Part shown: piece by piece, positions 10,051 through 29,699 of the stretch
How the letters are laid out: every line of letters starts with the position of its first letter
Position numbering within the stretch: the first letter of the stretch is position 1
Assembly: GCA_041391505.1 (NCBI GenBank)
Contig: JAWKNW010000004.1
Coordinates: 292,540-356,539, forward strand
Source of the DNA: Rhodothermales bacterium
Lineage (GTDB): Bacteria; Bacteroidota; Rhodothermia; Rhodothermales; JAHQVL01
DNA length: 64,000 nucleotides
Direction: 5' to 3'
Notes under the pieces: model-generated
What the model saw: only the letters and a program-made list of their open reading frames with translations
What the model was told of the DNA's origin: nothing
Database searches by the model: none
Made by a program: the position numbers and the translations under genes

Positions 10051-10055
10051 CCATC

Positions 10056-10502: not shown

Positions 10503-10583
10503 ACGGTCGTGAGCGCCCTCTGGGCGCGGTCAGGGGTCATCGGTCACTGATCGTCCTGAAACTTCGATGTCTTCTCGACCGAA

Positions 10584-10810: not shown

Positions 10811-11104
10811 ATGTCCTACGTCGTCGTAGCGACCTGGCGCGCCAAGCCAGGGAAAGAAGCGTTTATCGAAAACATCGTCCGGACGATGGCTCGGCTGTCC
10901 ACCACGGAGGAGCCGGAGACCATCCAGTTCACGGCGCAGCGGTCGGTGGACGATCCCGCCTCGTTCCTGCTGTACGAGGTCTATACCTCCGAGGCCGGCT
11001 TCGAGGCGCACAAGGAAACCGAGCATTTCAAGGAGTACGTACTCGGGCAGGCGCTGCCGAATCTGGCGCACCGCGAACGCGCGATCTACGAAACGCTCGA
11101 TTGA
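10811..11104 (+). CDS. Antibiotic-biosynthesis-monooxygenase (ABM) domain protein, YgiN-like
   Basis: 97 aa; ...FLLYEVYTSEAGFEAHKETEHFKEY... is the typical ABM/quinol-monooxygenase pattern. Confidence 0.75.
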   Translation: MSYVVVATWRAKPGKEAFIENIVRTMARLSTTEEPETIQFTAQRSVDDPASFLLYEVYTSEAGFEAHKETEHFKEYVLGQALPNLAHRERAIYETLD

Positions 11105-11817: not shown

Positions 11818-11892
11818 AAAAAGCCCGGTTTCACGTCACGGATGGTAGCGCTTCGCGTGTGCCGTCCTTCACCAAAGTCGGAAGAGCGAATT

Positions 11893-13262: not shown

Positions 13263-14171
13263 ATGCCAGAACTGATCAATTTTCAACCGACACCCAGCGG
13301 GCCGCCGGTACGCGCGTTTCGGCTAGAGCCGCAGCATACGCAGCAATTCCTGACCCCGCACGCCCATCGTTTCTTCGAAGTCGTGTACTTCGAGGAGCCA
13401 GGCGGCGTGCACCGTCTCGGGGACGAGGTCTGGGAAAGCACCGCCGGCGATTTGCTCATCATTCCGCCGGGGCAGGTGCACGAGTGGGCGGAGGACGTGT
13501 TCGAGAAACAGTCCACCATCTGGATCCTGGAATTCACGGCGTCGGCGCTGGACCCGGACGGCGACGCCGGCGAGTCGCTGCTCGGCATCCTGCTGCATCC
13601 GCTGCTGGTGCCGTTTGCCTTCGGCTCGCAGGAGGGGCCGATGCGGCTCAACGTGCCCGCCTCCCAGCGTTCGGGGTGGGAGACCGCGCTGCGATCGCTC
13701 GAGGCCGAACGCCGCAAGCAGCCTCCCTACTGGCAGGAGGCGGTGAACGCGCTCTTCACGCTGCTGCTCGTCCAGGTCTGCCGGTTTGCCGCCATGGCGC
13801 ATCCGGCGCCGCAGGCGCAGACGCAGCCGCTGCTCAAACAGGTATTCGAGGTGATCGACGCCCGGTATGCGGAGTCGCTTTCGCTCGCCGATGTGGCGAA
13901 GGAAGTCTTCTATTCGCCGGCGCATCTCACCACGACGATCCGCCGGCTGACCGGGCGGACCGTCGGCAACTGGATCATCTGGCGGCGCATCGCGGAAGCC
14001 CGGCATCTGCTGGTGCATACCGACCTGACCATCGCCCAGATCGCCGAGCGCGTGGGGTACACCGACCCCTCGCACTTCGTCCGCCTCTTTCGCCGCGAAG
14101 CCGGCATCTCGCCGGGCGCGTGGCGGGATGCGCACCGGGCTCCCGGGGGAAAAAGAGCCGGCGCGGTGTAA
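13263..14171 (+). CDS. AraC-family transcriptional regulator (cupin-type sensor domain + HTH)
   Basis: 302 aa. N-terminal HAHRFFEVVYF...IPPGQVHEW (cupin-like). C-terminal LSLADVAKEVFYSPAHLTTTIRRLTG...IAERVGYTDPSHFVRLFRREAGISPGAWR (AraC HTH). Confidence 0.85.
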   Translation: MPELINFQPTPSGPPVRAFRLEPQHTQQFLTPHAHRFFEVVYFEEPGGVHRLGDEVWESTAGDLLIIPPGQVHEWAEDVFEKQSTIWILEFTASALDPDGDAGESLLGILLHPLLVPFAFGSQEGPMRLNVPASQRSGWETALRSLEAERRKQPPYWQEAVNALFTLLLVQVCRFAAMAHPAPQAQTQPLLKQVFEVIDARYAESLSLADVAKEVFYSPAHLTTTIRRLTGRTVGNWIIWRRIAEARHLLVHTDLTIAQIAERVGYTDPSHFVRLFRREAGISPGAWRDAHRAPGGKRAGAV

Positions 14172-14240
14172 AAAACGCACATTCTTGCCGGCCTGGAATG
14201 GCTTCATTTGGCGATATAGGTTCTTTGCCTCGCGGGCGAG

Positions 14241-14304
14241 CGAAAAATCCGCCATGTACTACCAAAAATTACCTCTCGTGCGTCTTGACGCCTCCGGGTA
14301 TTAT
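14241..14304 (+). promoter_or_regulatory. Candidate activator-dependent promoter module (copy B)
   Basis: CGAAAAATCCGCCATGTACTACCAAAAATTACCTCTCGT (14241-14279) with direct repeats at 14243-14253 and 14264-14273, 21 bp apart. After a 19-nt spacer comes TATTAT (14299-14304). Same architecture as 287-350. Sits between the AraC gene and the first PQQ gene. Confidence 0.55.
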
Positions 14305-14485
14305 TTCACTGGCTAAACAGGTTTTTCGAACAGGGGTGCGAACGCGTCCTGTCGCGTGCCGTCCCGTGCGATACCCGTCCCTGGCCGCGTGAGGTCGCGC
14401 CGGCTCCAGTGTCGCCTCACGGCACGACGAAGCGACGGCGGAAGACGCGCATTTCGAGCCCATCCCACTCATCATTGCGTGAATC

Positions 14486-16654
14486 ATGAGAGACACCCTG
14501 CGCTTGCCCCTTTACGTGGCACTGGCCGCCTCGCTGCTGGCCGGTTGCGCGCCGAAGCAGCAGGCATTGGATGAATCGTTTTACACCTGGAAGCGCTACG
14601 AGGGCCAGCCCGGCGCGACCCATTTCTCCGCGCTCGACCAGATCAACCGGTCGAATGTAAACCAGCTGCAAGAAGCCTGGCGCTACGAGGCGCCGGATAT
14701 CGCGGCCTTCAACCCGATCGTGATCGACTCGGTGATGTACGCGTTCGGGGACGGCGGCGCCATGGTGGCGCTCGATGCCGCGACGGGGGAGGAATTGTGG
14801 TCGTACCAGAGCCCGCTGCCCGGGGGACGCACCGAGCACGGCGTGGCCTACTGGGAGAGCGCGGACCGGTCGGAACGCCGGCTCCTCTTTTTCCGGGGCA
14901 GCTATTACCTCGTGGCCATCGATGCGCGCACCGGCCAGGCGATCCCCTCGTTTGGCGACAACGGCCAGGTCGACCTCCGCCAGGGGCTCGACATCGACCC
15001 GATGCGCGTGGTGCGCGCCACGGCGCCGGCGCCCGGCGTCATCTATGACGACCTCTACATCCTGGGCTCGGCTCCGGGCGAAGGCTACGCCGCCGGGCCG
15101 GGGCACATCCGCGCCTTCAACGTGCGGACGGGCAAGCAGGTCTGGATCTTCCATACCCTCCCCAAACCCGGCGAATTCGGCTACGAAACCTGGCCGCCCG
15201 GACGCTCCGACGCCGCCGGCGGCGCTAACGCCTGGGGCGGGTTGAGCGTCGATATCGAACGCGGGATGGTGTTCGTTCCGCTGGGATCCGCCAACTACGA
15301 CTTTTACGGGGTGGATCGGCACGGCCAGAACCTCTTCGCCAATTCGCTCGTCGCCCTCGACGCGCGCACCGGCGAGCGGAAGTGGCACTTCCAGACGGTC
15401 CATCACGACCTCTGGGACTACGACCTCACGGCGACGCCCGTCCTCCTGACCATCCAGCGCGATGGCAAGCCGCTCGACATCGTCGCCCAGGCCACCAAAA
15501 CGGGGTTTGTGTTTGCGTTCAACCGCGAGACGGGCGAGCCGCTCTGGCCGATCGAGGAGCGGCCCATGCCGGCGTCCGACATGCCCGGCGAGCAGGCCTG
15601 GCCCACGCAGCCCATCCCGACGAAGCCGGCGCCCTTTATCCCCCAGACCCTGTCGGTGGAAGATTTTAACCCGCACATGCTGGACAGCGACCGGGATTCC
15701 CTCGAGGCGCTCGTCCGGTCGATGGTCTACAAGGGGATGTTCACGCCGCCCGACACGCATCCCACGCTCCAGGCGCCCGGCAACCGGGGCGGGGCGAACT
15801 GGGGTTCGACGGCCGGCGATCCACGCGACGGGACGTTTTTCGTGCTCAGCTACAACATGCCTTCGGTGCTGAAGCTCGAACCCATCTTCGCCGGCGCCGT
15901 GGGCACCGGCGGCTCGTCGTTCGACCAGGGCCAGGCCTTTTATCAGGCGAACTGCCAGATCTGCCACGGCGCCAACCGGCAGGGCCAGCCTCGCGGCGGC
16001 ATTCCGTCGCTGGTCGGCGTCGTCGAGCGCCTGAGCCACGACGACATCCGGCAGCAGATCACGGTCGGCCGCGGCCTCATGCCGGGTTTCCCGCAGATCA
16101 CCCCCGCGCAGTACGACGCCCTGGTGGCGTATCTGGCCAACCCGGAGCTGGCGCTGACGACCGGCCAGCAGCAGGCGACCGACGGCGGATTGACCGGCCG
16201 GCCGGAAGGACCGCAGCGGTACCAGAGCGGCTGGAACCATATTCTCGACAGCCGGGGCGAGCCGGCCATCAAGCCGCCCTGGTTCCGTTTGACGGCGTAC
16301 GACATGGAGACGGGCGACATCGCGTGGCAGGTGCCGATCGGCGAGGTGGATCATCTGGTGGCGGAGGGCATCGAAAATACGGGCACCTCCACCTGGGTCC
16401 GCGGCGGCCCGTCCGTCACGGCTGGCGAACTGATCTTTGTCTCCGCCGGCGAGAAGCTGTGGGCGCACGATCGTGAAACAGGCGCCCTGCTCTGGTCCAC
16501 GCCGTTGCCGGGCATCGGCGAGGGCATCCCCACCATTTATGAGGCCGAGGGCCGCCAGTTCGTCGTCGTGGCGGTGTCGCGCGGCGGCCAGGGGTCCCCG
16601 CCGGCCGTCAGGCCGCGAACGCCCGCCTACATCGCCTTCGCACTTCCGGAATAG
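14486..16654 (+). CDS. Lipoprotein PQQ-dependent (Gcd-like) beta-propeller dehydrogenase with embedded cytochrome c domain (paralog 1)
   Basis: 722 aa. Lipobox LLAGC. Gcd-type motifs ALDAATGEELW, NAWGGLSVD, LFANSLVALDARTGERKWHFQTVHHDLWDYDL, AWPTQPIP. Heme c motif CQICH at 15953-15967 followed by GLMPGF. Propeller-type repeats resume after it (AYDMETGDIAWQ, HDRETGALLW). Confidence 0.85.
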   Translation: MRDTLRLPLYVALAASLLAGCAPKQQALDESFYTWKRYEGQPGATHFSALDQINRSNVNQLQEAWRYEAPDIAAFNPIVIDSVMYAFGDGGAMVALDAATGEELWSYQSPLPGGRTEHGVAYWESADRSERRLLFFRGSYYLVAIDARTGQAIPSFGDNGQVDLRQGLDIDPMRVVRATAPAPGVIYDDLYILGSAPGEGYAAGPGHIRAFNVRTGKQVWIFHTLPKPGEFGYETWPPGRSDAAGGANAWGGLSVDIERGMVFVPLGSANYDFYGVDRHGQNLFANSLVALDARTGERKWHFQTVHHDLWDYDLTATPVLLTIQRDGKPLDIVAQATKTGFVFAFNRETGEPLWPIEERPMPASDMPGEQAWPTQPIPTKPAPFIPQTLSVEDFNPHMLDSDRDSLEALVRSMVYKGMFTPPDTHPTLQAPGNRGGANWGSTAGDPRDGTFFVLSYNMPSVLKLEPIFAGAVGTGGSSFDQGQAFYQANCQICHGANRQGQPRGGIPSLVGVVERLSHDDIRQQITVGRGLMPGFPQITPAQYDALVAYLANPELALTTGQQQATDGGLTGRPEGPQRYQSGWNHILDSRGEPAIKPPWFRLTAYDMETGDIAWQVPIGEVDHLVAEGIENTGTSTWVRGGPSVTAGELIFVSAGEKLWAHDRETGALLWSTPLPGIGEGIPTIYEAEGRQFVVVAVSRGGQGSPPAVRPRTPAYIAFALPE

Positions 16655-16721
16655 GTTTGCCGGGCTGTTCATGCCCCTCGCTCCGGATCTGCCTTTTTGT
16701 ACCATCCCTAGGAGATCAGAC

Positions 16722-18662
16722 ATGTCCACTACGTTCATGGTCCGGCTCGCTGGCGCCCTGTGTGTGCTCGCAGCCCTGCCGGCGTCGGCGCAGCAAAGCC
16801 CCGCGCCCGACTTTATCCCCGACTACATCTTTCACGACTCGCAGCTGAACGGCTGGCGTCCGATCGGCGGAGCGGAGTGGAAGGCGGAGTTCGGGGCCAT
16901 CACGGGCACGGCCGGCAGGAATGGCGGATGGCTCATGCTGGATGCGTCGTACCAGAACGCCGCGTTTTTCACCCGTTTCAAATGCAAAGGCGCCTGCGAC
17001 GCCGGCGTGCTCCTGCGCGCCGAAAAGACGCCGACCGGCATGAAAGGCGTTTTTGTGGCGATTGAAAAAGGAACGATCGCGCCCTACCGCGTCACCCTCG
17101 ATGCGAACGGGAAGATCGTTTCGAAGCAGTCCGCGCGCCGGCAGGGCGGCGGCGGGGGTGGAGGGCAACAGCCGCCGATGCCATCGAGCCCCGTGCTCGA
17201 CGCGGCCACCGCCGCGTTGACGGCCCCGGTACCCGTCCAGCCCGACGCCTGGAATACCCTCGAAGTCATCGTCGACGGCAACCTCATCTACAACCACCTC
17301 AACAACGTCCGCAACGCCATTGCCGGCGGCATCGCGCAGGAATTCCCCGATACGCCGGCGCCGGAGTTCGGGGGCGCCGTGATCATCCCGGTGACGCGCG
17401 TCCACGGGTATGGCCCGATCGCGCTGTATGTGGGCTCGGGGACGGTGGAGTTCGAGGATGTGTCGGTGAAGGATCTGCACGTCCTCAACGTCGAGCCGGA
17501 GAAGACCTCCAACCAGTTCCGGGCACAGCAGCTCAACGAATTCTATTTCGGATGGGGGGCGGATATCGCGGACGTCAACCAGGACGGCATCAACGACCTC
17601 ATCTCCGGACCGTTTTATTACCTCGGCCCCGAATTCACCGAGCGGCACGAGTACTACGAGGCCCGCGTATTCAACCCCGGGCTCGAGTACATCAACGACA
17701 TGCTTACGTTCGCGAACGACTGGAACGGCGACGGATGGGTCGATGCCCTCGTCACCGAACGCCGGCCGCTGGTGCTGTACGTCAACCCCAGGGGCGAGCG
17801 GCGCTTTTGGGACCGGATCGAGGCGCTGCCGGATGTCTGTAGCGAAACGGCCGTGCGCGCGGATGTGGACGCCGACGGGAAGCCGGAGATCGTCTATGTG
17901 GCGGATGACGGCCGCGTGGCCTACGGCGAGCCCGATCCGGCCAATCTCAACGGCGCGTGGAAGGTGCACAAGATTTCAGAACCCGTCGTCGCCGGCTGCA
18001 ACACGCACGGCGTGGGCACGGGCGACGTCAACGGCGACGGCCGGATCGATATCCTGCAGGCCCGGGGATGGTGGGAGCAGCCTGCCGCCGGCCCCGACAA
18101 AGGCATGTGGATCTACCACGACGATCAGTTTGGCCGCTACACCCGTTCGCCGCAGCACCCGGGCGGCGCCGAGATCTCGGTGTACGACTTCGACGGCGAC
18201 GGCCTGAACGATGTCGTGACCAGCCTCAGCGCGCACGGCTGGGGCCTGGCGTGGTACAAGCAGAAACGCGACCCGGCCGGCAAGATCTCGTTCGACGAGC
18301 ACCTGATCATGGGCGACTTCTCGACGAAAAACGCCGGCGGCGTCACCTTCTCCCAGGTCCATTCCGGCGCCACGCTGGCGGACATCAACGGGGACGGCAT
18401 CATGGATTTTGTGACCGGAAAACGGCACTGGTCGCACCTGGATGCCTATACCGATCCCGACCCCGATGGGGAGGGCGTCATTTACTGGTACCAGACCGTC
18501 CGAAGCCCGGGAGCCCCGGGAGGCGTCGAATTCGTGCCGCATCTGATCCATAACAAGTCGGGCGTCGGTTCCGAGGTCAAGGTGCTGGACATCGATGGCG
18601 ACGGTGTGCTCGACGTCGTGGCGTCGGGGACGCGCGGCACGTTCATCTTCTGGGGTAAGTAG
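16722..18662 (+). CDS. Secreted DUF1080 (3-keto-disaccharide-hydrolase-like) + FG-GAP beta-propeller fusion protein (paralog 1)
   Basis: Start at MSTTFMVRLAGALCVLAALPASAQQ (signal peptide). N-terminal lectin/glucanase-like pattern (GW...W...G.I.G...FKCKGACDAGVLLR...WNTLEVIVDGNLIYNHLN...GPIALYVG...FEDVSVKDL). Then about six DxNGDG/DxDGDG FG-GAP-type repeats. Confidence 0.8.
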   Translation: MSTTFMVRLAGALCVLAALPASAQQSPAPDFIPDYIFHDSQLNGWRPIGGAEWKAEFGAITGTAGRNGGWLMLDASYQNAAFFTRFKCKGACDAGVLLRAEKTPTGMKGVFVAIEKGTIAPYRVTLDANGKIVSKQSARRQGGGGGGGQQPPMPSSPVLDAATAALTAPVPVQPDAWNTLEVIVDGNLIYNHLNNVRNAIAGGIAQEFPDTPAPEFGGAVIIPVTRVHGYGPIALYVGSGTVEFEDVSVKDLHVLNVEPEKTSNQFRAQQLNEFYFGWGADIADVNQDGINDLISGPFYYLGPEFTERHEYYEARVFNPGLEYINDMLTFANDWNGDGWVDALVTERRPLVLYVNPRGERRFWDRIEALPDVCSETAVRADVDADGKPEIVYVADDGRVAYGEPDPANLNGAWKVHKISEPVVAGCNTHGVGTGDVNGDGRIDILQARGWWEQPAAGPDKGMWIYHDDQFGRYTRSPQHPGGAEISVYDFDGDGLNDVVTSLSAHGWGLAWYKQKRDPAGKISFDEHLIMGDFSTKNAGGVTFSQVHSGATLADINGDGIMDFVTGKRHWSHLDAYTDPDPDGEGVIYWYQTVRSPGAPGGVEFVPHLIHNKSGVGSEVKVLDIDGDGVLDVVASGTRGTFIFWGK

Positions 18663-18717
18663 CCGGCGCGGCGCGCGGTGTGATTATCCCGTATTCAACC
18701 AGTCACAGGCTTTTGCC

Positions 18718-20721
18718 ATGAAATCGATGTTCTTCCGTGGTTTTGTCGTTGCGCTGATCGCGCTCCTGTTCCCGCGGGGGGGCTGGGCGCAGGACAAGGA
18801 GAAAGAGGCGACGATTCCGATCTCGATGCTGTTGTCCCAACAGGCGGCCGAGCCGCCCTCGGCCTCCGCGGCGCTCGCCCCGACCCTCGATGCGACGTAT
18901 GTCCAGACGTTTATGCCGTCCCGGGTGTTCGACGCCACGAGCCTCAACGGCACCCGCCAGCAGAGCGGGCGGTGGCGCGTGCAGGACGGCGAATATATCG
19001 GCCTGGTCGGGCCCGGCGGCAGCGCGCTGCTCCTGCTGGATGGGTCGAGCCAGGATCTCGCCGTGGCGGCATCCTTTCGGTGCGGCCCCGGTTGCGAGCC
19101 GGGCATCGTGATCCATGCGCAAACCGAGGGCGATCGCACCAGCGCGGTGCTCTATTCGTTCGGCGAGGGGAAGGTGGGGGGACATCAGATCGTGCTCGAT
19201 CCGAGCGGAAAGCTCGTCGAGCGGTCGGGCATCGAGCCGAGTCCGAGTCCGTACCCCATGAGCATGCTCGACTTCCGGGCGGAGTATCCGGGCCTGGGCC
19301 TGTTGTACCCGGGCCAGCTCGGAGGCCGGCAGGGGATCGAGCCGCTCAAGCTCGACAATTCCTGGAACCGCGCCGAGATCCATTCGGTGGGCACGTCGCT
19401 GCGGGGCCTGCTCAACGGCGCCGGCACCATGGAAGCCGGCGTGACCGCCGCCGCCCGCACCGCCCACGGGCAGGTGGGCCTCTTCGTTTCCGGCCCTCCC
19501 GGCACCGAGATCCGGTTCCGCGGCGTCGGTGTCAAGCCGATGGACGTCAAGAACGCCCAGCCGGTCGAGGTGACGTCGCCGCGCTTCCGGAAGCAGCAGC
19601 TCGACGCGATGTTCTACAGCGAAGCCATCACCGCGGCCGACGTGAATCTGGACGGCAACATGGACGTCATCGCCGGGCCGAACATCTTCATGGGGCCCGA
19701 ATTCACGACGCGGCACGAACTGTTCGTCCCCAAAACCTATTCGCCCACCTCGTACCCCGATCCGCTCCTCGCCTCCGCCGGCGACTTCACCGGCGACGGG
19801 TATCCGGACATCCTGTACACCGGCGAGCCGGGACGTCCGGGTTTTCTCTATGTGAATCCCGGCAAGGGCGACGTGCACCGCTGGGAAAAATACATGGTGA
19901 TCCCGTCGGTGGACAACGAGGTCGCCTTCGCGGATGACATCGACGGCGACGGCCAGCTGGAGTATGTCTACACCGATGGCGGCTTCATCGGGTACGCCGA
20001 GCCGGGTCCGGACCCGACGAAGATGTGGACCTTCCACCCCGTCACCGAGAAGGGACCGTGGGGCGCGATGTATGCGCACGGACTGGGCACCGGCGACGTG
20101 GATGGCGACGGGCGCAAGGACATCATCCAGGCCTACGGGTGGTGGCAGCAGCCGGCGACGCCGAACGGGCAGCCGTGGACGTACCATCCCGAGACGTTTG
20201 GCCGCTGGGGATCCCAGCAGGGCGGCGGCGGCGGCGCCCGCGCCTACGCCTACGATGTCAACGGCGACGGGCTGAACGATATCGTGACCAGCCTCGAAGG
20301 CCATGGCTTCGGCCTGGCCTGGTTCGAGCAGAAACGCGACGCGGCCGGCACGATCTCGTTCACGCAACACATGATCATGGATGACTTCGCCCATCCGAAC
20401 AACGGCGTCGTCTTCGCCGCGCTCCATGCCCTCGCCGTGGCCGACATCGACGGCGACGGGCTGCAGGATATCGTCACCGGCAAACGCTGGTGGGCGCATT
20501 TCGGCGAAAACCCGACCGACCCGGATGCCTTCGGCGCACCCGTGGTCTACTGGTTCCGCCTCGTGCGCGAGAACGGCCAGGCCCGCTTCGTGCCCGAGCT
20601 GATCAACAACAACTCGGGCGTCGGGACCGACATGGTCACGGCCGACCTCAACAACGACGGGCTGCCGGACGTGCTGACCGCGACGCGCCGGGGAACGAAT
20701 GTCTTTATCAGCAAACGCTAG
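18718..20721 (+). CDS. Secreted DUF1080-like + FG-GAP beta-propeller fusion protein (divergent paralog 2)
   Basis: Start at MKSMFFRGFVVALIALLF... (signal peptide). N-terminal domain keeps FRCGPGCEPGIV and ...GQVGLFVSGPPGTEIRFRGVGVK. The C-terminal part has DVNLDGNMD, DIDGDGQLE, DVDGDGRKD, DVNGDGLND, DIDGDGLQD and DLNNDGLPD repeats. Confidence 0.8.
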   Translation: MKSMFFRGFVVALIALLFPRGGWAQDKEKEATIPISMLLSQQAAEPPSASAALAPTLDATYVQTFMPSRVFDATSLNGTRQQSGRWRVQDGEYIGLVGPGGSALLLLDGSSQDLAVAASFRCGPGCEPGIVIHAQTEGDRTSAVLYSFGEGKVGGHQIVLDPSGKLVERSGIEPSPSPYPMSMLDFRAEYPGLGLLYPGQLGGRQGIEPLKLDNSWNRAEIHSVGTSLRGLLNGAGTMEAGVTAAARTAHGQVGLFVSGPPGTEIRFRGVGVKPMDVKNAQPVEVTSPRFRKQQLDAMFYSEAITAADVNLDGNMDVIAGPNIFMGPEFTTRHELFVPKTYSPTSYPDPLLASAGDFTGDGYPDILYTGEPGRPGFLYVNPGKGDVHRWEKYMVIPSVDNEVAFADDIDGDGQLEYVYTDGGFIGYAEPGPDPTKMWTFHPVTEKGPWGAMYAHGLGTGDVDGDGRKDIIQAYGWWQQPATPNGQPWTYHPETFGRWGSQQGGGGGARAYAYDVNGDGLNDIVTSLEGHGFGLAWFEQKRDAAGTISFTQHMIMDDFAHPNNGVVFAALHALAVADIDGDGLQDIVTGKRWWAHFGENPTDPDAFGAPVVYWFRLVRENGQARFVPELINNNSGVGTDMVTADLNNDGLPDVLTATRRGTNVFISKR

Positions 20722-20898
20722 GTTCTATCTGGAAAAGCCGGCAGACCGCGTGTATCCCGACCCGAATTCAGGGTTCGACGCGGTGTTGAAGGTTCCCTGA
20801 ATGCCCCGGGGCCACCCGAGCGATTTTCAAGAAAGGCCTGATTCCGGGGGCGGCCCATGTCGGTTGCCGGCCCTCGTTTTATACCCCGCTCATCCTGT

Positions 20899-23082
20899 AT
20901 GATGTCCACGACCAAACTACCCCTGGCCGGACTGGCCGCGCTGGCGATGCTGGCCGCGGCCTGTTCGCCGTCTACCACCGAACTCGACCCGCGTTTTTAC
21001 GAGTGGCGTCGCTACGAGTCGGAGCCCGGCGCCACGCATTTCTCCGCGCTCGACCAGATCGATCGCACCAATGTCAACCGGCTGACCGTCGCCTGGACGT
21101 ACGAGACCCCCGGGGCGGCTTCGATCAACCCGATCGTCGTCGATTCGATGATGTACGTCTTCGGGGACTCGAACGCGGTGGAGGCCCTCGATGCCGCTAC
21201 CGGCCGGCGCATCTGGTCGCACCGAAGCCCGAATACCGTGACGCTGCTCGGCCTGCCGAGGGGCTACTTCGAGCATGGCATCACGTACTGGGAAAGCGAG
21301 GACCGCAGCGACCGCCGGCTGCTGATGTATGCCAACACGAACACGCTGACGGCCATCGACGCGCTGACCGGAGAGCTGATCGTTTCGTTTGGCGACAGCG
21401 GCATGGTCGACCTCCGGCAGGGGCTCGACATCGACCCGTTGCGCGTCCAGCGCGGATCGTCGCCGAGCCCGGGCGCCATCTTTGAAGACCTCATCATCCT
21501 CGGCTCGTCGCCCGGCGAAGGGTATGCCGCCGGCCCCGGGCACATCCGCGCGTTCAACGTCCGCACCGGGCGTCAGGAATGGATCTTCCATACGCTGCCC
21601 AAACCCGGCGAATTCGGGTACGAAACCTGGCCGGAAGGGCGGTCGGACGAGGGCGGGGGCGCCAACGCGTGGGGCGGCATCAGCGTGGATGTCGAACGCG
21701 GCATCGCCTACGTGCCGCTCGGCTCCGCGACGTACGACTTCTACGGCGTCGATCGCCACGGGCAAAACCTCTTCGCCAATTCGCTGGTGGCGCTCAACGC
21801 GCGGACCGGCGAGCGCCTCTGGCACTTCCAGACGGTGCATCACGACCTCTGGGACTACGACCTGACCGCCACGCCCGTCCTGTTGACGGTGCAGCGCGAC
21901 GGCCGGCCGCTGGACATCGTCGTCCAGGCCACCAAGACCGGGATGGTGTTCGCCTTCGATCGCGTGACGGGCGAGCCGCTCTGGCCGATCGAGGAGACGC
22001 CGGTGCCGGGATCGGACATGCCGGGAGAGCAGGCCTGGCCGACCCAGCCCATCCCCACGAAACCCGAACCGTTCATCCCCCTGACCCTGTCGGTCGAGGA
22101 CTTCAACCCGCACATGGACGCCCGCGACCGGGATTCGCTGGAGGCGTTCGTGCGCTCGATGGTCTACAAGGGCATGTACACGCCGCCCGACACCCGGCCG
22201 ACGCTGCAGGTGCCGGGAAATCGCGGGGGCGCCAATTTCGCCTCGACGTCCGGCGACCCGCGCGACGGCACCTTTTACGTGCTGAGCTACAACATGCCGT
22301 CGGTGCTGATGCTGGAGCCCATCACCGCCGGCGCCGTCGGCACGGGCGAGTCCATCTTCGACCAGGGGCAGGCCATCTACCAGGCGAACTGCCAGATCTG
22401 CCACCGCCCGAACCTGCAGGGGCAGCCCCTGAGCGGGATCCCGTCGCTGGTCGGCGTGACCGACCGCCTCAGCCACGACATCCTGAAGCAGCAGATCAAG
22501 GGCGGCCGCGGGCTGATGCCGGGCTTTCCGAATCTGAGCGACGGCGAATTCGATGCGCTCCAGTCCTTCCTCGCCAACCCCGACCTGGCGTTGACCGCCG
22601 GCGAGGCGCTGACGACGGGCCGGCCCGAGGGGCCCGTCCGCTACCAGAGCGGCTGGAACCACATCCTCGACAGCAAGGGGGTGCCGGTCATCAAGCCGCC
22701 GTGGTTCCGGATGACGGCCTACGACATGAACACCGGCGCCATCAAATGGCAGGCGCCGATCGGCGAGGTGCCGCACCTGGCGGAGAAAGGCATCACGAAC
22801 ACCGGCGCGGCCAACTGGCTGCGCGGCGGGCCGGCGATCACCGCCGGCGGGCTCATCTTCCAGATGGCCGGCGAGACCTTCTGGGCCTACGACAGCGCGA
22901 CCGGCGAGGTGCTCTGGCGCTCCGAGCTGCCGGGCATCGGCGAAGGGATCCCGACGGTCTACGAAGTCAACGGCCGGCAGTATGTCGTGGCCATCGCCAC
23001 GGCGGGCGGATTCGGCCAGCCGGAGCCCACACGCCCGCGCAAACCCGCCTACATCGTGTATTCGCTTCCGGAAACTGACTGA
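20899..23082 (+). CDS. Lipoprotein PQQ-dependent dehydrogenase with embedded cytochrome c domain (paralog 2)
   Basis: Start at MMSTTKLPLAGLAALAMLAAAC (lipobox). Collinear with paralog 1. CQICH at 22390-22404. Confidence 0.85.
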   Translation: MMSTTKLPLAGLAALAMLAAACSPSTTELDPRFYEWRRYESEPGATHFSALDQIDRTNVNRLTVAWTYETPGAASINPIVVDSMMYVFGDSNAVEALDAATGRRIWSHRSPNTVTLLGLPRGYFEHGITYWESEDRSDRRLLMYANTNTLTAIDALTGELIVSFGDSGMVDLRQGLDIDPLRVQRGSSPSPGAIFEDLIILGSSPGEGYAAGPGHIRAFNVRTGRQEWIFHTLPKPGEFGYETWPEGRSDEGGGANAWGGISVDVERGIAYVPLGSATYDFYGVDRHGQNLFANSLVALNARTGERLWHFQTVHHDLWDYDLTATPVLLTVQRDGRPLDIVVQATKTGMVFAFDRVTGEPLWPIEETPVPGSDMPGEQAWPTQPIPTKPEPFIPLTLSVEDFNPHMDARDRDSLEAFVRSMVYKGMYTPPDTRPTLQVPGNRGGANFASTSGDPRDGTFYVLSYNMPSVLMLEPITAGAVGTGESIFDQGQAIYQANCQICHRPNLQGQPLSGIPSLVGVTDRLSHDILKQQIKGGRGLMPGFPNLSDGEFDALQSFLANPDLALTAGEALTTGRPEGPVRYQSGWNHILDSKGVPVIKPPWFRMTAYDMNTGAIKWQAPIGEVPHLAEKGITNTGAANWLRGGPAITAGGLIFQMAGETFWAYDSATGEVLWRSELPGIGEGIPTVYEVNGRQYVVAIATAGGFGQPEPTRPRKPAYIVYSLPETD

Positions 23083-23130
23083 GTGGAACGTTTCGTGACA
23101 TCCATATCCTTTGCGGCACATTGCCGGCAC

Positions 23131-25284
23131 ATGACCGACCTTCGATGGATTGTATGCGGCTTGCTGTTGATCTCGCCCCTGGTGCTGGCGTCCTGCGCGT
23201 CGGAGGATCAGGGGCTCGATCGGCGGTTCTATAGCTGGTCCCGCTTCGAGGCGGAGCCGGGCGCGACCAGCTTCTCGGCGCTCGACCAGATCGACCGATC
23301 GAACGTGGATCGGTTGCAGGTGGCCTGGATGCATCCGACGCCCGGCGCGGTGATCCACAATCCGATCGTCGTCGACTCGTTGTTGTACGCCGTGGGAGAC
23401 AGCGGGTCGGTCATGGCGCTGCACGCCGGCACCGGTCGCCGCGTGTGGTTCCACCCGAGCACGCCGGCCGGCCGCATGACCGGGCGCGCCTTCATGTACT
23501 GGGAAAACGAGGACCGCTCGGATCGCCGCCTCCTCCATTTTCGGGGCAGCTACAACCTGGTGGCGCTCGACGCCCTCACGGGCGAGCCCATCGAGTCGTT
23601 CGGCGAGCATGGGGTGGTCGATCTTCGGTACGGCCTGGGCATCCCCCCGGAAACGATGGCCCGCGCCACCTCGTCGTCGCCCGGCGTCGTGTTCGAGGAC
23701 CTCGTCATTCTCGGGTCGTCGCCCGGCGAGGGCTACCGCGCCGGCCCGGGGCATATCCGCGCGTTCGACGTGCGGACCGGCAAACAGCAGTGGATCTTCC
23801 ATACCCTGCCGCAACCCGGCGAATTCGGGTACGACACCTGGCCCGCCGGCCGGCCCGAAAAGGGGGGTGGCGCCAACGCCTGGGGCGGCATGAGCGTGGA
23901 TGTGGAGCGGGGGATCGTGTACGTGCCGCTGGGCTCCGCCAACTACGACTTTTACGGCGTCGACCGCCCCGGGCAGAACCTCTTCGCCAACTCCCTCGTC
24001 GCGCTGGATGCGCGCACCGGCGAGCGTATCTGGCACTTTCAGACCACCCATCACGACCTGTGGGACTACGACCTGGCCGCTTCGCCGGTCTTGCTGACCA
24101 TCCAGCGCGACGGAAAGCCGCTCGACATCGTGGCGCAGGCGACCAAAACGGGGATGGTGTTCGCCTTCAACCGCGAGACGGGCGAACCGCTCTGGCCGAT
24201 CGAGGAGCGCCCTGTGCCGGCCTCGCCGATGCCGGGCGAGCAGGCCTGGCCGACGCAGCCGTTTCCCGCGAAGCCGGCGCCCTTCGTGCCGCTCGAATGG
24301 AACACCGAGGAGGATCTTAATCCGTACCTGTCCCTCGCCGACCGCGACTCCATTCAGCACCTGCTGCGGTCGATGGTGGTGACCGGCATGTATACGCCGC
24401 CCGGCACCCGGCCCACGCTCCAGATCCCGGGAAACCGGGGCGGGGCGAACTGGGGCTCGACCGCCGGCGACCCCCGGGACGGGACCTTCTACGTCCTCGG
24501 CGACAACCTGCCTTCCGTCCTCGAGCTGGAGGCCGTCACCGCCGCCGCGATCGGCACCGGCGGCACCATCGTGGACCGCGGCCAGGCCGTCTATCAGGCG
24601 TACTGCCAGATCTGCCATCGCCCCGATCTGGAGGGCCAGCCCGCCGGCGGCATCCCGTCGCTGCGCGGCGTCACCGAGCGGCTGTCGCATGTGGACCTCA
24701 ACGCGGTGATTCGGGGCGGCCGAAACCAGATGCCGGCCTGGCCCCAGCTTACCGAGGCCGAGATGACCGCGCTGTTTTCGTACCTCTCCAACCCCGACCT
24801 CGCCCTGACCCCCGGCGCGAATGCCCGGGCGGAAGACGACCTGCCCGAACGCTACCAGAGCGGATGGATCCACATCGTGGATTCGCAAGGCGTGCAGGCG
24901 ATCAAGCCGCCCTGGCTACGGCTCACCGCCTACGACATGAACGAAGGCGTCATCAAATGGCAGGTGCCCGTCGGTGAGGTATGGTGGCTGGCCGAGCAAG
25001 GCATCACGGGCACCGGCGCCGGCATGCGCGTGCGCGGAGGCCCCGCCGTCACGGCCGGCGGCTTGATCTTCCAGTCCGCCGCCGAAAAGATCTACGCATT
25101 CGATAAGGATACCGGGGCCCTACGCTGGTCCCATTCCCTGCCGGGCATCGGCCAGGGCATCCCTTCCGTTTACCAGGTGGATGGCAAGCAGTATGTCGTG
25201 GTGGCGGTGAACGCGGTGCCTGCCGCCCGAATGCCCCCCGGCGCCGTGATCGAGCCGGGGTACATGGCCTTCGCACTGCCCTGA
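23131..25284 (+). CDS. Lipoprotein PQQ-dependent dehydrogenase with embedded cytochrome c domain (paralog 3)
   Basis: ATG at 23131 (MTDLRWIVCGLLLISPLVLASC, lipobox) preferred over the GTG at 23083 that abuts the upstream stop. CQICH at 24604-24618. Confidence 0.85.
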   Translation: MTDLRWIVCGLLLISPLVLASCASEDQGLDRRFYSWSRFEAEPGATSFSALDQIDRSNVDRLQVAWMHPTPGAVIHNPIVVDSLLYAVGDSGSVMALHAGTGRRVWFHPSTPAGRMTGRAFMYWENEDRSDRRLLHFRGSYNLVALDALTGEPIESFGEHGVVDLRYGLGIPPETMARATSSSPGVVFEDLVILGSSPGEGYRAGPGHIRAFDVRTGKQQWIFHTLPQPGEFGYDTWPAGRPEKGGGANAWGGMSVDVERGIVYVPLGSANYDFYGVDRPGQNLFANSLVALDARTGERIWHFQTTHHDLWDYDLAASPVLLTIQRDGKPLDIVAQATKTGMVFAFNRETGEPLWPIEERPVPASPMPGEQAWPTQPFPAKPAPFVPLEWNTEEDLNPYLSLADRDSIQHLLRSMVVTGMYTPPGTRPTLQIPGNRGGANWGSTAGDPRDGTFYVLGDNLPSVLELEAVTAAAIGTGGTIVDRGQAVYQAYCQICHRPDLEGQPAGGIPSLRGVTERLSHVDLNAVIRGGRNQMPAWPQLTEAEMTALFSYLSNPDLALTPGANARAEDDLPERYQSGWIHIVDSQGVQAIKPPWLRLTAYDMNEGVIKWQVPVGEVWWLAEQGITGTGAGMRVRGGPAVTAGGLIFQSAAEKIYAFDKDTGALRWSHSLPGIGQGIPSVYQVDGKQYVVVAVNAVPAARMPPGAVIEPGYMAFALP

Positions 25285-25331
25285 CCCTCCATCCCTTTCA
25301 ACCACACGATCAACCCTCTGCGAGGCATCTT

Positions 25332-27221
25332 ATGCGCTACCGTTTGAACTGGATACTTGTTATCGCTTCGTTAATCGGGTTGCCGGCGCGCGCGCAGCAG
25401 AGCCCCGCCCCCGATTTTGTGCCGGACTATCTCTTCGACGGTTCGCAACTCTCCGCGTGGCGTCCACTCGGTGGGGCGGAATGGAAAGCGGAGAAAGGCA
25501 CCATCACCGGGACGGCCCGCTCGGGCGGCGGCGCGCTGGTGTTCGACCGGTCCTATGAGGATGTCGCGGTGTTCACTCGCTTTCGATGCACCGGCGCCTG
25601 CGACGCCGGCGTGCTGCTCCGCCTCGAAAAATCCGGCGACGGCATGAAAGGCATCCTGATCTCGCTGAAGGACGACGACGTAGGGCCCTATCGCGTGATG
25701 CTCGACCGGAACGGCAAGATCACGTCGCGCGAACTGGCGCGCGAGGCCAACGACGGCGATAACGGTGTCCGCACCGCGCCGAGCCCGCTGCAGCGGGATG
25801 CGTGGAACACCATCGAGATCTTTATCCGGGCCAACGAGATCCAGAATCACCTGAACGGCGTCCGCCGTTCGATCCCCGGCGGCACTGCGGTGCCACAGAC
25901 GCCCGAATCCGCCGCCGCCGGCATCTTCGCGCCCCGCGAAACGATGCCGCAGGCGTATGGTCCGATCGCGCTGTATGTCGGTTCGGGCAGCGTCGCGTTT
26001 ACCGATGTGGCGGTGAAGGACTGGATCCAGTACACCGTCGAGTCCGAGCACCTGTCGGACCGCTTCGCCATGCAGCATGTGGCCGACTTCCACTATTCCT
26101 GGGGCGTCGACGCGGCGGACATCGACCGCGACGGCGTCAACGACCTCGTCGCCGGCCCCTATTATTACCTCGGCCCGGACTTCCGCCGTCGCCGCGAGTA
26201 TTTCCCGTCCCGCACCTACAACCCCGGCGTCGAATACACGCCGCACATGCTCGCTTTCGCGAAGGACTGGACCGGTGACGGCTGGCCGGATATCATCGTG
26301 TCCGAGATGCGGCCGCTCGCGCTCTTCATCAACCCGAAAGGCGAAAGCCGGCGCTGGGAGCGGGTGCTCGTCATCCCCGACGTCTGCAGCGAGATCGCCA
26401 TCCAGGCGGATGTGGACAGCGACGGCGAGGAAGAACTCGTGTACGTCGACCGGGAAAGCCGCGTCTCTTATGGCAAGGTGGATCCCGCAAATCCCACCGG
26501 ACCCTGGAAGCTGACGAAGGTGTCTGCGCCCGTGTTCGAGTTCAACGGGTGCAGCATCCACGGCGTGGGCGCCGGCGACATCAACGGTGACGGGCGCGTG
26601 GATATCCTCCAGGCCACCGGGTGGTGGGAACAGCCGGCGAAGGACGCGGCCAAAGGCAACTGGGTGTACCACCAGCAGCTGTTCGGTGAATCCGCCACGT
26701 TCATCGGCGGCGGCGGCGCCATCTCGGTGTACGACTTCAACGGGGACGGGCTGAACGACGTCGTCTCCAGCCTCAGCGCGCACGCCTGGGGCCTCGCCTG
26801 GTACGAACAGCAACGCGACGCCAGCGGAAAGATCTCCTTCGAGAAGCACCATATCATGGGCGACTTCTCGACGGAAAACGCCGGCGGCGTCACGTTCTCC
26901 GAACCCCATGCCGGCGCCATCCTGGCGGACGTCGACCGCGACGGCATCATGGATTTCATCATCGGCAAACGGCACTGGGCGCACCTCGACACGATGGTCG
27001 ACCCCGATCCCGACGGCGAAGCGGTGATCTACTGGTACCAGACCGTCCGCCGGCCCGACGCGCCCGGCGGCGTCGCCTTCATCCCGCACCTCGTCCACAA
27101 TAAATCGGGCGTCGGATCCGAGGCCAAGGCGAAGGACATCAATGGCGACGGCGCCATCGACATCCTGACCTCCGGCACCCGCGGGACGTTCGTATTCTGG
27201 GGCAAGCCGACAGGGCAATAA
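25332..27221 (+). CDS. Secreted DUF1080 + FG-GAP beta-propeller fusion protein (paralog 3, close to paralog 1)
   Basis: 629 aa. Signal peptide ...LIGLPARAQQSPAPDF. FRCTGACDAGVLLR motif. Same FG-GAP repeat series as 16722..18662 (e.g. YDFNGDGLNDVVSSLSAHAWGLAWYEQ). Confidence 0.85.
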   Translation: MRYRLNWILVIASLIGLPARAQQSPAPDFVPDYLFDGSQLSAWRPLGGAEWKAEKGTITGTARSGGGALVFDRSYEDVAVFTRFRCTGACDAGVLLRLEKSGDGMKGILISLKDDDVGPYRVMLDRNGKITSRELAREANDGDNGVRTAPSPLQRDAWNTIEIFIRANEIQNHLNGVRRSIPGGTAVPQTPESAAAGIFAPRETMPQAYGPIALYVGSGSVAFTDVAVKDWIQYTVESEHLSDRFAMQHVADFHYSWGVDAADIDRDGVNDLVAGPYYYLGPDFRRRREYFPSRTYNPGVEYTPHMLAFAKDWTGDGWPDIIVSEMRPLALFINPKGESRRWERVLVIPDVCSEIAIQADVDSDGEEELVYVDRESRVSYGKVDPANPTGPWKLTKVSAPVFEFNGCSIHGVGAGDINGDGRVDILQATGWWEQPAKDAAKGNWVYHQQLFGESATFIGGGGAISVYDFNGDGLNDVVSSLSAHAWGLAWYEQQRDASGKISFEKHHIMGDFSTENAGGVTFSEPHAGAILADVDRDGIMDFIIGKRHWAHLDTMVDPDPDGEAVIYWYQTVRRPDAPGGVAFIPHLVHNKSGVGSEAKAKDINGDGAIDILTSGTRGTFVFWGKPTGQ

Positions 27222-28759: not shown

Positions 28760-28914
28760 GCAATTCGCTGGCTGGAGAAACACCGCACGATACGACACCC
28801 GGCCATGAGTCGCACCTGTACGCCGGCCTCCATAGCCCTACAGCCGATCTCGTCGATGCGGGTCCGCGATCGGCATCGTTATTTTCGTACGGAGGTATCT
28901 ATCGCTCAGGACGC

Positions 28915-28953
28915 AAACCCGAAGGGTCTTCGAGACCCTTCGGGTTTCTTTTT
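28915..28953 (+). terminator. Textbook intrinsic-terminator structure with no annotated upstream gene
   Basis: AAACCCGAAGGGTCT (28915-28929), loop TCG, AGACCCTTCGGGTTT (28933-28947): perfect 15-bp stem followed by CTTTTTC. Located in the divergent intergenic region between nhaC (-) and the pRiA4b-like gene (+). Confidence 0.6.
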
Positions 28954-29028
28954 CGCCCGGCGACGGTTGCACCAGCCGGTTGCATGCTGTATGCTTCCAC
29001 AGATCCGTCCACAGCTCCGCGACCGTCC

Positions 29029-29637: not shown

Positions 29638-29699
29638 AACCTGCCCGATAGGGTGGCGTAGTGCTAGTTTTCTAGCATGAAAAAATTCGGGCACCTGTT

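Follow-up and report, generated by a model that had tools for sequence, protein, structure and literature searches.

The subject of this analysis is a gene array within a 64-kb stretch of DNA of 65% G+C from a Rhodothermales bacterium (contig JAWKNW010000004.1; hereafter the window), in which a gene for an AraC-family regulator is followed, on the same strand, by six genes encoding two kinds of exported protein. Three of these are dehydrogenases dependent upon pyrroloquinoline quinone (PQQ) that contain a cytochrome c domain (PQQ_A, PQQ_B, and PQQ_C), and the other three, which we call FG proteins, combine a DUF1080-like domain with a 7-bladed FG-GAP/VCBS propeller (FG_A, FG_B, and FG_C). The pairing of the two families is not a matter of chance, and the evidence presented below supports a functional unit composed of a PQQ dehydrogenase, with or without cytochrome c, an FG protein, and often a TIM barrel protein exported by the twin-arginine translocation (Tat) pathway. 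In the reading that we prefer, to which we give an even chance of being right, this unit would work in the periplasm by oxidizing a sugar and then processing the resulting keto-sugar, while passing the electrons to the respiratory chain. The original prediction for this DNA had proposed repeated modules of the oxidize-then-cleave type; the TIM barrel partner speaks in favour of the general idea of oxidation in the periplasm with subsequent processing of a keto-sugar, but the role of cleaver that was assigned to the DUF1080 domain is not supported.

Genes were deduced from a list of open reading frames (ORFs) with their translations. After the regulator (13263-14171), the array continues along the + strand with PQQ_A (14486-16654), FG_A (16722-18662), FG_B (18718-20721), PQQ_B (20899-23082, with a possible alternative ATG upstream at 20857), PQQ_C (23131-25284), and FG_C (25332-27221), in the same order that had been reported originally. 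The successive gaps from AraC to FG_C measure 314, 67, 55, 177, 48, and 47 bp, the first being that between AraC and PQQ_A; the gap between PQQ_A and FG_A had been given as 68 bp, and the last four values were right. A relative having about 80% amino acid identity maintains the order of the six genes. Among the paralogues, PQQ_B is 73% identical to PQQ_A and PQQ_C 65% identical to both, whereas FG_C is 60% identical to FG_A and FG_B is more divergent, with about 40% identity to the other two. Profile searches with Pfam bear out the PQQ, cytochrome c, DUF1080, and FG-GAP assignments, since every domain call over the seven genes exceeds its threshold. The PQQ profile PF01011 scores 569-583 bits in PQQ_A/B/C, with the top value in PQQ_A (cutoff 26.7), and Cytochrome_CBB3 (PF13442) 44-52 bits, again highest in PQQ_A; the DUF1080 profile PF06439 scores 54, 35, and 66 bits in FG_A, FG_B, and FG_C, respectively (cutoff 26.8), and FG-GAP_3 85-94 bits in all three, from 85 in FG_A to 94 in FG_B. 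The whole set had been predicted to be periplasmic, in agreement with the signal peptides as judged by eye: Sec-type in all three FG proteins (that of FG_A reads MSTTFMVRLAGALCVLAALPASAQQ) and lipoprotein-like in the dehydrogenases. The lipobox claimed for all three dehydrogenases is clear in PQQ_A (LAGC) and PQQ_C (LASC), but looser in PQQ_B (AAAC).

Evidence for a functional link comes from the distribution of the two families in other genomes. We collected 80 loci anchored on an FG gene, one genome per species, with flanks of ±10 kb, and scanned them with a hidden Markov model (HMM) built from the four PQQ paralogues of the window, namely those of the array plus PQQ_D, which is encoded further downstream. 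A match was obtained in 51 of the 80 loci and a full-length PQQ dehydrogenase lay within 10 kb in 45, so that the co-localization holds well beyond this genome. The full-length gene is at most 1.5 kb from FG in 38 loci and at most 300 bp in 24, with 19 of these 24 on the same strand; the proportion within 1.5 kb (38/45) compares with about 15% expected under uniform placement in the flanks (p = 7e-25). Most loci with the pair belong to Acidobacteriota, the others to Bacteroidota (Chitinophagaceae, Mucilaginibacter, Foetidibacter), Verrucomicrobiota, and Rhodothermales, and tight same-strand operons of PQQ and FG genes are present in four phyla. Of the 38 FG-adjacent enzymes, 13 lack the CxxCH motif and come from other subfamilies of PQQ dehydrogenases; hence, it is with the PQQ catalytic unit that FG is linked. 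Within the PQQ-cytochrome c type, distance clustering of 89 sequences produced two top-level clades, one including 34 proteins adjacent to FG and 9 that are not, the other none and 7, respectively (Fisher p = 1e-4, with a possible sampling bias between the locus sets); all four paralogues of the window fall in the FG-adjacent clade. Two independent neighbourhoods labelled with Pfam domains illustrate the arrangement: a genome of 8.1 Mb has the order PQQ-FG-FG(split)-PQQ and another of 4.5 Mb the order DUF1080, PQQ, and FG. In the split copy of the larger genome (locus L165, 12045-14059), FG is called as a DUF1080 protein of 278 aa plus an FG-GAP protein of 393 aa, which may be due to a frameshift (or a pseudogene) or else to a genuine separation of the two domains. 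Both families are large, the scored candidates forming more than 3,700 (FG) and more than 8,000 (PQQ) clusters at 90% identity, and both occur in multiple copies within genomes.

The PQQ dehydrogenases of the array have an unusual domain topology. The cytochrome c domain, which the original prediction had correctly recognized from its CxxCH motif in all three proteins and had described as fused, is placed at residues ~479-551 of PQQ_A, between propeller segments 35-466 and 600-690 as defined by Pfam; therefore, it is an insertion, not a terminal fusion. In the alignment with E. coli Gcd this domain occupies the place of a short loop, and in the AlphaFold2 model of PQQ_A (pLDDT 87.8) it appears as a helical element placed after strand 460-466 and before strand 579-585. 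Foldseek aligns this model with 8-bladed quinoproteins, including quinoprotein alcohol dehydrogenase (ADH), methanol dehydrogenase, and sorbose dehydrogenase (E 1e-25 to 1e-34, TMt 0.58-0.75). Among the PDB matches, no solved quinohaemoprotein has such an inserted cytochrome, all of them carrying it at the C-terminus. The insertion in the propeller loop is common to all four PQQ paralogues of the window and to thousands of homologues; the architecture is very common, given that of 8,000 candidates scored only 2 failed to reach E <= 1e-10, and the annotation is generic, such as the label "quinoprotein glucose dehydrogenase" given by JGI. The haem motif of PQQ_A, C490-x-x-C493-H494, is invariant among 52 homologues together with M532, so that the domain has the CxxCH and distal Met of class I c-type cytochromes. 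PQQ_A is 31% identical to E. coli Gcd and retains its D466, K493, and W404 as D311, K338, and W250, which are also invariant in the 52 homologues. According to the mutagenesis literature on Gcd, D466, W404, and K493 are the catalytic Asp base, the Trp stacking on PQQ, and a conserved Lys, while D354 and T424 belong to the proposed metal site, and H262, H775, and D730 determine substrate specificity. In the window proteins, D354 is replaced by Glu and T424 by Asn or remains Thr, while H262, H775, and D730 are not retained. Because the catalytic and haem residues are invariant, these dehydrogenases look catalytically competent, with electrons passing to the built-in His/Met haem c.

In terms of family, the nearest NCBIfam model is TIGR03074, the clade of glucose, quinate, and shikimate dehydrogenases, with 346-377 bits against a cutoff of 832.65. 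The profile is matched only from position ~155 onward, a lipoprotein signal replacing the transmembrane (TM) domain, and it is this absence of the N-terminal membrane domain that keeps the score under the cutoff. Full membership in TIGR03074, that is as a membrane-bound Gcd/quinate/shikimate dehydrogenase, was rejected on both grounds, the score and the missing N-terminal multi-TM domain. Three other assignments were also discarded: type II quinohaemoprotein ADH, since the cytochrome c is not C-terminal and Tyr-Trp stands where 1yiq has its Cys-Cys pair; TIGR04528, the family of acido-empty-quinoproteins (about 200 bits vs. a cutoff of 650); and BamB, on its score. Residues 306-313 of PQQ_A (HHDLWDYD) include a DxD motif, which a 2026 preprint reads as a lanthanide-binding signature in soil "PQQ-GDH" enzymes. 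We did not retain lanthanide dependence on this basis, for the motif is non-diagnostic: E. coli Gcd (locus L081), which depends on Ca/Mg, has D-M-D at the same place, and in this clade DxD may not separate lanthanide from Ca/Mg enzymes.

The FG partners were predicted to carry a signal peptide, a DUF1080 domain and a propeller rich in DxDGDG motifs, and so they do. Each has 6-7 Ca loops of DxDxDG type, with seven in FG_A, and the AlphaFold2 model of FG_C (pLDDT 89.2) consists of an N-terminal beta-sandwich followed by a 7-bladed propeller. Foldseek matches the propeller of FG_C with CRTAC1, ITFG2, integrin alpha, and the aldos-2-ulose dehydratase AUDH (TMq 0.41), and its N-terminal domain with the DUF1080 structures 4jqt, 3u1x, 8v31 (AL2), and 3hbk, as well as with CBM66 and lectin folds; the profile of the N-terminal domain also matches AL2 with an E value of 6e-5. 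In proteins of the type of AL2 and of the characterized BT2157, which are 3-keto-glycoside 1,2-lyases/3-keto-2-hydroxyglucal hydratases, the conserved active and metal site of DUF1080 consists of E103, N134, E164, Q166, Y190, K245, Q273, and H275 (bioRxiv 10.1101/2024.03.25.586180). We mapped these residues both by a profile-to-PDB alignment and by a MAFFT alignment in which canonical DUF1080 proteins of the fetched loci were included. The regions of Y190 and K245 cannot be aligned, and the FG family has lost all six residues that could be mapped: E103 becomes T or A; N134 is variable, with D, K, or Q; E164 is replaced by P, S, or A and Q166 by R; Q273 becomes Y, and H275 a gap or G. In terms of motifs, the canonical NSG turns into C(D/K/Q)(A/T)G, E-Y-Q into (P/S/A)-Y-R, and L-Q-x-H-G into L-Y-V-G. 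The NSG region is taken by a nearly invariant C-x3-C pair (C86 and C90 in FG_C), which probably forms a disulfide or, less likely, a metal site. Given the loss of the BT2157 active-site residues, the DUF1080-like domain is unlikely to be the cleaver and would most likely serve as a binding or docking module. The comparison of 58 FG members at about 50% identity points to the other half of the protein: the N-terminal domain contains no invariant polar residue, whereas the propeller has 15 outside the Ca loops, five of which are His (E239, Q248, E289, N334, E354, H410, H447, H484, Q493, H526, K546, R547, H551, N590, and S592). Hence, any chemistry would sit in the propeller, for which we infer a catalytic role from this pattern of polar conservation.

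The propeller has further connections with redox proteins. A HMMER search of the full library with FG_C retrieved 455 representatives at E <= 1e-30, and the propeller (residues 245-625, ~40% identity along its entire length) was found also alone and inside much larger proteins. According to Pfam and NCBIfam, P0305 combines it with DUF1080, TIGR02604, HEAT repeats, and the TIGR02603 haem domain, TIGR02604 being the "PVC-type haem-binding CxxCH protein" (DUF7133) with a putative dehydrogenase domain; P0323 joins the propeller to TIGR02604, and P0291 has a TIGR02603 CxxCH haem domain plus DUF1080 and the propeller. The DUF1080 domain of the fused proteins retains the NSG and QxH motifs. Other fusions join the propeller to HEAT repeats or to a domain resembling Sde182. 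Taken together, fusions and gene adjacency indicate that the propeller module is joined to a periplasmic redox and haem apparatus either way. In P0293, the same propeller subfamily is fused to the Sde182 nucleoside-hydrolase-like "cellulose-binding" domain, which is another carbohydrate-related context.

Clustering of all the ORFs in the 80 FG loci revealed a third recurrent partner that the original prediction had missed. This is a xylose-isomerase-like TIM barrel, which forms two clusters, TIM_a in 18 loci and TIM_b in 10, and bears twin-arginine signals. Two paralogues of TIM_b, a subfamily also located within PQQ/FG operons of other phyla, are encoded on the + strand upstream of the array: TIM1 (2968-3933; Pfam AP_endonuc_2, 290 bits on the TIM_b HMM), with a lipobox-like N-terminus MDRRTFLQ...LWSC, and TIM2 (3944-4894; 262 bits), which also has a lipobox-like Cys. 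Tight operons of the form TIM-PQQ-FG or PQQ-TIM-FG are found in Bacteroidota and Verrucomicrobia (Mucilaginibacter, Chitinophaga, and Verrucomicrobia). The PQQ-TIM-FG operon of the cultured Mucilaginibacter limnophilus has gaps of 0-3 bp and is flanked by genes for GH43-like and GH32 glycoside hydrolases (GH). The structures closest to the TIM_b profile are the uncharacterized 4ovx and those of ketose 3-epimerases, a group of keto-sugar metalloenzymes. The Tat-exported TIM barrel lends support to the idea of oxidation followed by keto-sugar processing. The other recurrent neighbours of FG genes are TonB-dependent-type outer-membrane barrels (30/80 loci), short-chain dehydrogenases/reductases (SDR; 20/80), SMP-30/gluconolactonase-like proteins (17/80), tetratricopeptide repeat (TPR) plus multihaem proteins (17/80), transketolase (14/80), and aldehyde dehydrogenases (ALDH) of IolA/MMSDH type (9/80); no twin-arginine signal is present on the lactonase-like, ALDH, or SDR proteins. 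The window has cytoplasmic enzymes of two of these types, an SDR (589-1371, +), with homologues in 19 of the 80 FG loci, and an IolA/MMSDH-type ALDH (1388-2848, +; TIGR01722 519 bits vs. a cutoff of 448.5), homologues of the latter, at about 800 bits, lying beside FG genes in the 9 loci mentioned above (L010, L034, L053, L068, and others). The IolA-type ALDH and the weak resemblance of TIM_a to IolE (84 bits vs. a cutoff of 290) hint at cyclitols or inositol-like compounds, a possible substrate class that we have not adopted.

How might these proteins work together? A lipoprotein PQQ dehydrogenase of the Gcd/quinate clade, devoid of the membrane anchor, would oxidize a hydroxyl group of its substrate, be it a sugar, a glycoside, or a cyclic polyol, and a soluble cytochrome or a terminal oxidase would then receive the electrons through the inserted His/Met haem c. 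The FG protein would work on the same substrate stream, perhaps in a physical complex with the dehydrogenase, its DUF1080-like beta-sandwich acting as a carbohydrate-binding or docking module and its 7-bladed VCBS propeller, with the invariant His, Glu, Gln, Lys, and Arg, as the working part that transforms the keto-sugar. The chemistry of the propeller would most likely be an elimination, a dehydration, or a ring opening, as in the case of AUDH after pyranose oxidase, and the Tat-exported TIM_b metalloenzymes may act on the same keto-sugar; we favour the propeller and the TIM barrel as catalysts of the second step, instead of the DUF1080 domain. Catabolism would be finished in the cytoplasm by the SDR and the semialdehyde dehydrogenase and, elsewhere, by lactonase-like and transketolase enzymes. 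The three pairs of the array would be tandem duplicates that have diverged to 40-73% identity, each presumably with its own range of substrates, and placed, in this lineage, under an AraC-type sensor. A carbohydrate context is provided by the genes for a glucose-methanol-choline (GMC) oxidoreductase, a GH78-like protein, and esterases in the window, and by the GH32 and GH43-like genes beside the Mucilaginibacter operon.

The logic of such a module resembles that of known periplasmic pathways of sugar oxidation. In the 3-keto-glycoside pathway of Bacteroides and Alistipes (BT2156-BT2159; AL1-AL3), a periplasmic oxidoreductase producing a keto-sugar works with a TIM lyase and a DUF1080 lyase/hydratase (bioRxiv 10.1101/2024.03.25.586180). 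The same three exported parts, by Tat, Sec, or lipoprotein signals, are seen here, namely an oxidoreductase, a xylose-isomerase-like TIM barrel, and a DUF1080 fold, but the oxidoreductase of those bacteria is an NAD-bound Gfo/Idh/MocA protein, instead of a PQQ quinohaemoprotein linked to respiration, and the DUF1080 domain of our system lacks the active site and is fused to a VCBS propeller; between TIM_b and either BT1 or AL1 no relationship can be detected. No Gfo/Idh/MocA gene is present among the predicted ORFs of the window. In Caulobacter, LacABC, a GMC flavoprotein-cytochrome c lactose 3-dehydrogenase, is encoded beside the DUF1080 protein CCNA_01705 (PMC9007349). Here too a putative periplasmic sugar dehydrogenase, presumably linked to respiration, adjoins a DUF1080 protein, and a GMC protein of the FAD-GDH/fructose-dehydrogenase class belongs to the conserved Rhodothermales cluster; the main dehydrogenase, however, is dependent on PQQ and not FAD, and the protein beside it has two domains, with the DUF1080 site degenerate. 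The fungal AUDH (4a7y), which acts after pyranose oxidase, is a dehydratase with a VCBS propeller (PMC8023676). The combination of pyranose 2-oxidase and AUDH offers the same oxidize-then-dehydrate logic, and the catalytic domain of AUDH is the 7-bladed VCBS/FG-GAP_3 propeller retrieved above by Foldseek, although there is no detectable sequence relation beyond the repeat family and AUDH has cupin and lectin domains in place of DUF1080.

On the side of the dehydrogenases, type II quinohaemoprotein ADHs (ADH IIB, ADH IIG, and qhEDH; 1kv9, 1yiq, and 1kb0) share the 8-bladed PQQ propeller and one haem c per chain, and they are the best PDB match of the window proteins in both sequence and fold, with about 20% identity. 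They differ, however, in the C-terminal position of the cytochrome, which here lies in a propeller loop, and in the vicinal Cys-Cys, which is absent here ("eacc" in 1yiq vs. "vayw"); moreover, the proteins of the window belong to the Gcd/quinate clade by sequence and not to that of alcohol dehydrogenases. The glucose, quinate, shikimate, and inositol dehydrogenases of TIGR03074, with E. coli Gcd, constitute the closest sequence family (377 bits) and share HHDLWDxD plus the catalytic Asp, Lys, and Trp; unlike E. coli Gcd, our proteins have no N-terminal 5-TM domain reducing ubiquinone, but a lipoprotein anchor and a haem c instead. Some PVC-type CxxCH proteins (TIGR02604 + HEAT + TIGR02603), namely P0305, P0323, and P0291, carry the same propeller and a DUF1080 domain on a single chain, so that the association is realized by fusion, but their redox domain has another uncharacterized fold, not the 8-bladed PQQ type, and the motifs NSG and QxH are still present in the DUF1080 domain of the fused proteins. 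Finally, TIGR03866 is a PQQ-dependent catabolism-associated beta-propeller protein of unknown role that is encoded beside PQQ dehydrogenases; FG proteins have no NCBIfam match to it and belong to a different propeller family. Our literature searches found no paper describing the PQQ-FG pairing, the inserted-cytochrome topology, or any characterized member of the FG family, in keeping with the initial impression that this is not an already named pathway.

Several observations weigh against oxidation followed by keto-sugar processing. Besides the loss of the DUF1080 active site in the FG family, the association between the two families is asymmetric: when 80 metagenome loci were anchored on PQQ-cytochrome c homologues, an FG gene was present in only 7, as opposed to 45/80 in the reverse direction, indicating that FG depends on the PQQ dehydrogenase, while the dehydrogenase family is broader and works mostly without FG. 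Genes for PQQ biosynthesis, which the original prediction had found to be missing from the array, are absent from the whole 64-kb window. A profile search detected no relation of TIM_b with the characterized 3-keto-glucoside lyases BT1 and AL1, and the C-glycoside deglycosidase 7bvs matched the TIM_b profile with an E value of 0.12 only, the best PDB match being 4ovx. The SMP-30/lactonase-like proteins recurring in 17 of the 80 FG loci are cytoplasmic and fit C1 oxidation better than keto-sugar chemistry; indeed, they argue for C1 oxidation in at least some loci.

This last point leads to the main rival explanation, which we hold to be unlikely and yet to be reckoned with: The PQQ-cytochrome c proteins would be Gcd-like aldose dehydrogenases that convert free sugars to lactones in the periplasm by oxidation at C1, FG would be a glycan-binding or depolymerizing protein (lyase or hydrolase) that liberates these sugars in a preceding step, and the lactones or aldonates would be imported and catabolized. 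The affinity of the dehydrogenases with TIGR03074, their 31% identity to E. coli Gcd, and the name given by JGI to their homologues all agree with this explanation, but the residues conferring specificity to Gcd (H262, H775, and D730) have been lost. Equally, the recurrence of lactonase-like, SDR, and transketolase genes (17, 20, and 14 of the 80 loci) would be accounted for, except that the lactonase-like proteins have no signal peptide and none is encoded in this window. Genes for GH78-like, GH32, and GH43-like proteins in the vicinity, and the similarity of the FG N-terminal domain to CBM66 and lectin folds, would suit an upstream glycan-binding or depolymerizing FG; however, no propeller of polysaccharide lyases or glycoside hydrolases is present among the top 50 Foldseek matches, and the proteins in which the propeller is fused with dehydrogenase and haem domains suggest that it acts with the redox step, not before it. 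The periplasmic Tat-exported TIM barrel, with its relation to ketose epimerases, is also hard to place in a C1-lactone route.

A second explanation, which appears improbable to us, is that FG has no catalytic function, being either a scaffold that docks on the dehydrogenase for substrate capture or a factor supplying Ca2+, a lanthanide, or a cofactor for its maturation or function, with the DxDxDG loops as metal sites. The asymmetric dependence of FG on PQQ dehydrogenases is what one would expect of an accessory protein, as is its pairing with several dehydrogenase subfamilies; yet most PQQ-cytochrome c homologues have no FG nearby, and this is incompatible with a general maturation factor. 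The 6-7 EF-hand-like Ca loops per protein, the loss of the DUF1080 catalytic site, and the fact that the structural neighbours CRTAC1, ITFG2, and integrin alpha function in binding and not as enzymes would also fit, but 15 invariant polar residues outside the loops, including five His, exceed the conservation usually seen in scaffolds. As to the supply of a lanthanide, the DxD motif that the recent preprint reads as a binding signature for such metals exists also in the Ca/Mg-dependent E. coli Gcd. Moreover, the 1:1 tandem duplication and divergence of the two genes suggests substrate-specific pairs. The last possibility, that two expanded, multi-copy families are interleaved by coincidence without any functional link, is effectively refuted by the co-localization statistics (38/45 within 1.5 kb, p = 7e-25), with the operons in four phyla, the fusions, and the clade-specific linkage, and we find it hardly credible.

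The preferred reading of oxidation followed by keto-sugar processing can be extended into a broader picture, which we put forward tentatively and consider somewhat doubtful as a whole: a widespread and so far undescribed, energy-conserving, non-Koshland breakdown of glycans in aerobic bacteria of soil and sediment. The clade of PQQ quinohaemoproteins with the inserted cytochrome c would oxidize glycosides or cyclitols in the periplasm, and a new catalytic family of VCBS propellers, attached to a degenerate DUF1080 module for binding, would, with the TIM barrel, cleave or dehydrate the keto-intermediate, while the electrons would go to respiration instead of a bound NAD; the propeller would then be a second-step enzyme shared by several systems of periplasmic sugar oxidation, the PVC fusions included. 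Acidobacteriota, Bacteroidota, Verrucomicrobiota, and Rhodothermota are major degraders of carbohydrates in soil and sediment, and they have many copies of both families, none of which has been characterized. If the module is indeed a functional unit, a role would be assigned to the large family of "FG-GAP/VCBS repeat proteins", and a route driven by PQQ and cytochrome c would be added to the recently found oxidize-then-eliminate cleavage of glycans. It would also explain the expansion of PQQ "glucose dehydrogenase" genes in soil bacteria and supply quinohaemoproteins of a new domain topology, possibly attractive for direct-electron-transfer biosensors. The hypothesis lends itself to direct testing, as bacteria with the tight three-gene operon are in culture; cultured carriers include Mucilaginibacter limnophilus YBJ-36 (L063, with the PQQ-TIM-FG operon), Foetidibacter luteolus YG09 (L045), and Terriglobus albidus DSM 26559 (L040).

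Regulation by AraC, which was part of the original prediction, applies at most to this lineage. The regulator has the build of AraC/XylS proteins, with a C-terminal double helix-turn-helix (HTH) and an N-terminal cupin-like sensor (HTH_18 85 bits, AraC_binding 38 bits, plus HTH_AraC), and in the relative mentioned before its gene occupies the same position, 53 bp before the first PQQ gene. The recurrence of AraC, however, is confined to close relatives within Rhodothermales; in other phyla IclR or GntR regulators recur near FG genes, or no regulator is nearby. For this reason, AraC control was rejected as a general feature of the module. Scans for sigma-70 promoters and terminators gave no signal above shuffled sequences and yielded no operon boundaries.

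The cluster extends on both sides of the array. In the relative (locus L162), the order is cyclase, Mo-hydroxylase, ABM, major facilitator superfamily (MFS), AraC, PQQ, FG, FG, PQQ, PQQ, FG, GMC, and PQQ on the opposite strand. The window has the same final genes: that for a GMC-family protein similar to FAD sugar dehydrogenases (30926-32548, +, with a possible start at 31016; Pfam GMC_oxred_C) and, after it as in relatives, that for the fourth PQQ-cytochrome c paralogue, PQQ_D (35733-37901, -), which has about 54% identity and 577 bits with PF01011. Since both maintain their position in the relative, they are part of the conserved cluster. In the PDB, the GMC protein is best matched by two structures, FAD-glucose dehydrogenase (6a2u) and fructose dehydrogenase (7w2j), with the glycoside 3-oxidases 7qf8 and 7dve coming next. 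Between FG_C and the GMC gene, the region 27332-30887 contains genes for a Na+/H+ antiporter (- strand), a PRiA4_ORF3-like protein (28741-29637), and a protein of beta-lactamase fold; in the relative, FG_C and the GMC gene are 23 bp apart, and the region looks like a lineage-specific insertion into the cluster. Divergently from PQQ_D there is an ORF of 1217 codons for a GH78-like alpha-L-rhamnosidase (38036-41689, +; Bac_rhamnosid6H 73 bits, plus N and C domains). Hence, the statement that canonical GH genes are missing is true inside the array but not for its surroundings. This ORF is absent from L162 and its gene model is provisional, given that a gene filter based on G+C at third codon positions chose another, shorter frame (38196-39203). 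Two esterases are encoded beyond PQQ_D.

Upstream of the array, and on the same strand, the region 4895-11104 encodes a UPF0261 protein, a putative cyclase, a three-subunit Mo-hydroxylase (FAD, MoCo, and 2Fe-2S), and an ABM monooxygenase, and is followed by a gene for a nucleoside:H+ symporter-like MFS protein (11842-13137). In the relative, whose fetched locus begins at the cyclase gene, synteny with the array holds for the block from that gene on; the block does not recur in other phyla. A longer block is conserved among loci of Acidobacteria (L030, L038, L080, L076, L029, and L018), composed of SDR, FG, Tat-exported TIM barrel, PQQ-cytochrome c, lactonase-like, FG, TPR/haem, and TonB-dependent-type barrel proteins, in which the TPR protein, uncharacterized, has paired CxxCH or cytochrome c7 motifs. 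The contig of L029 is labelled as "uncultured Bifidobacteriaceae" and yet carries this acidobacterial block with TonB-type barrels, so that it is probably mis-binned. The sole RNA gene identified in the window by Rfam and tRNA scans is that for tRNA-Leu(CAA), at 43254-43339 on the - strand and distant from the array.

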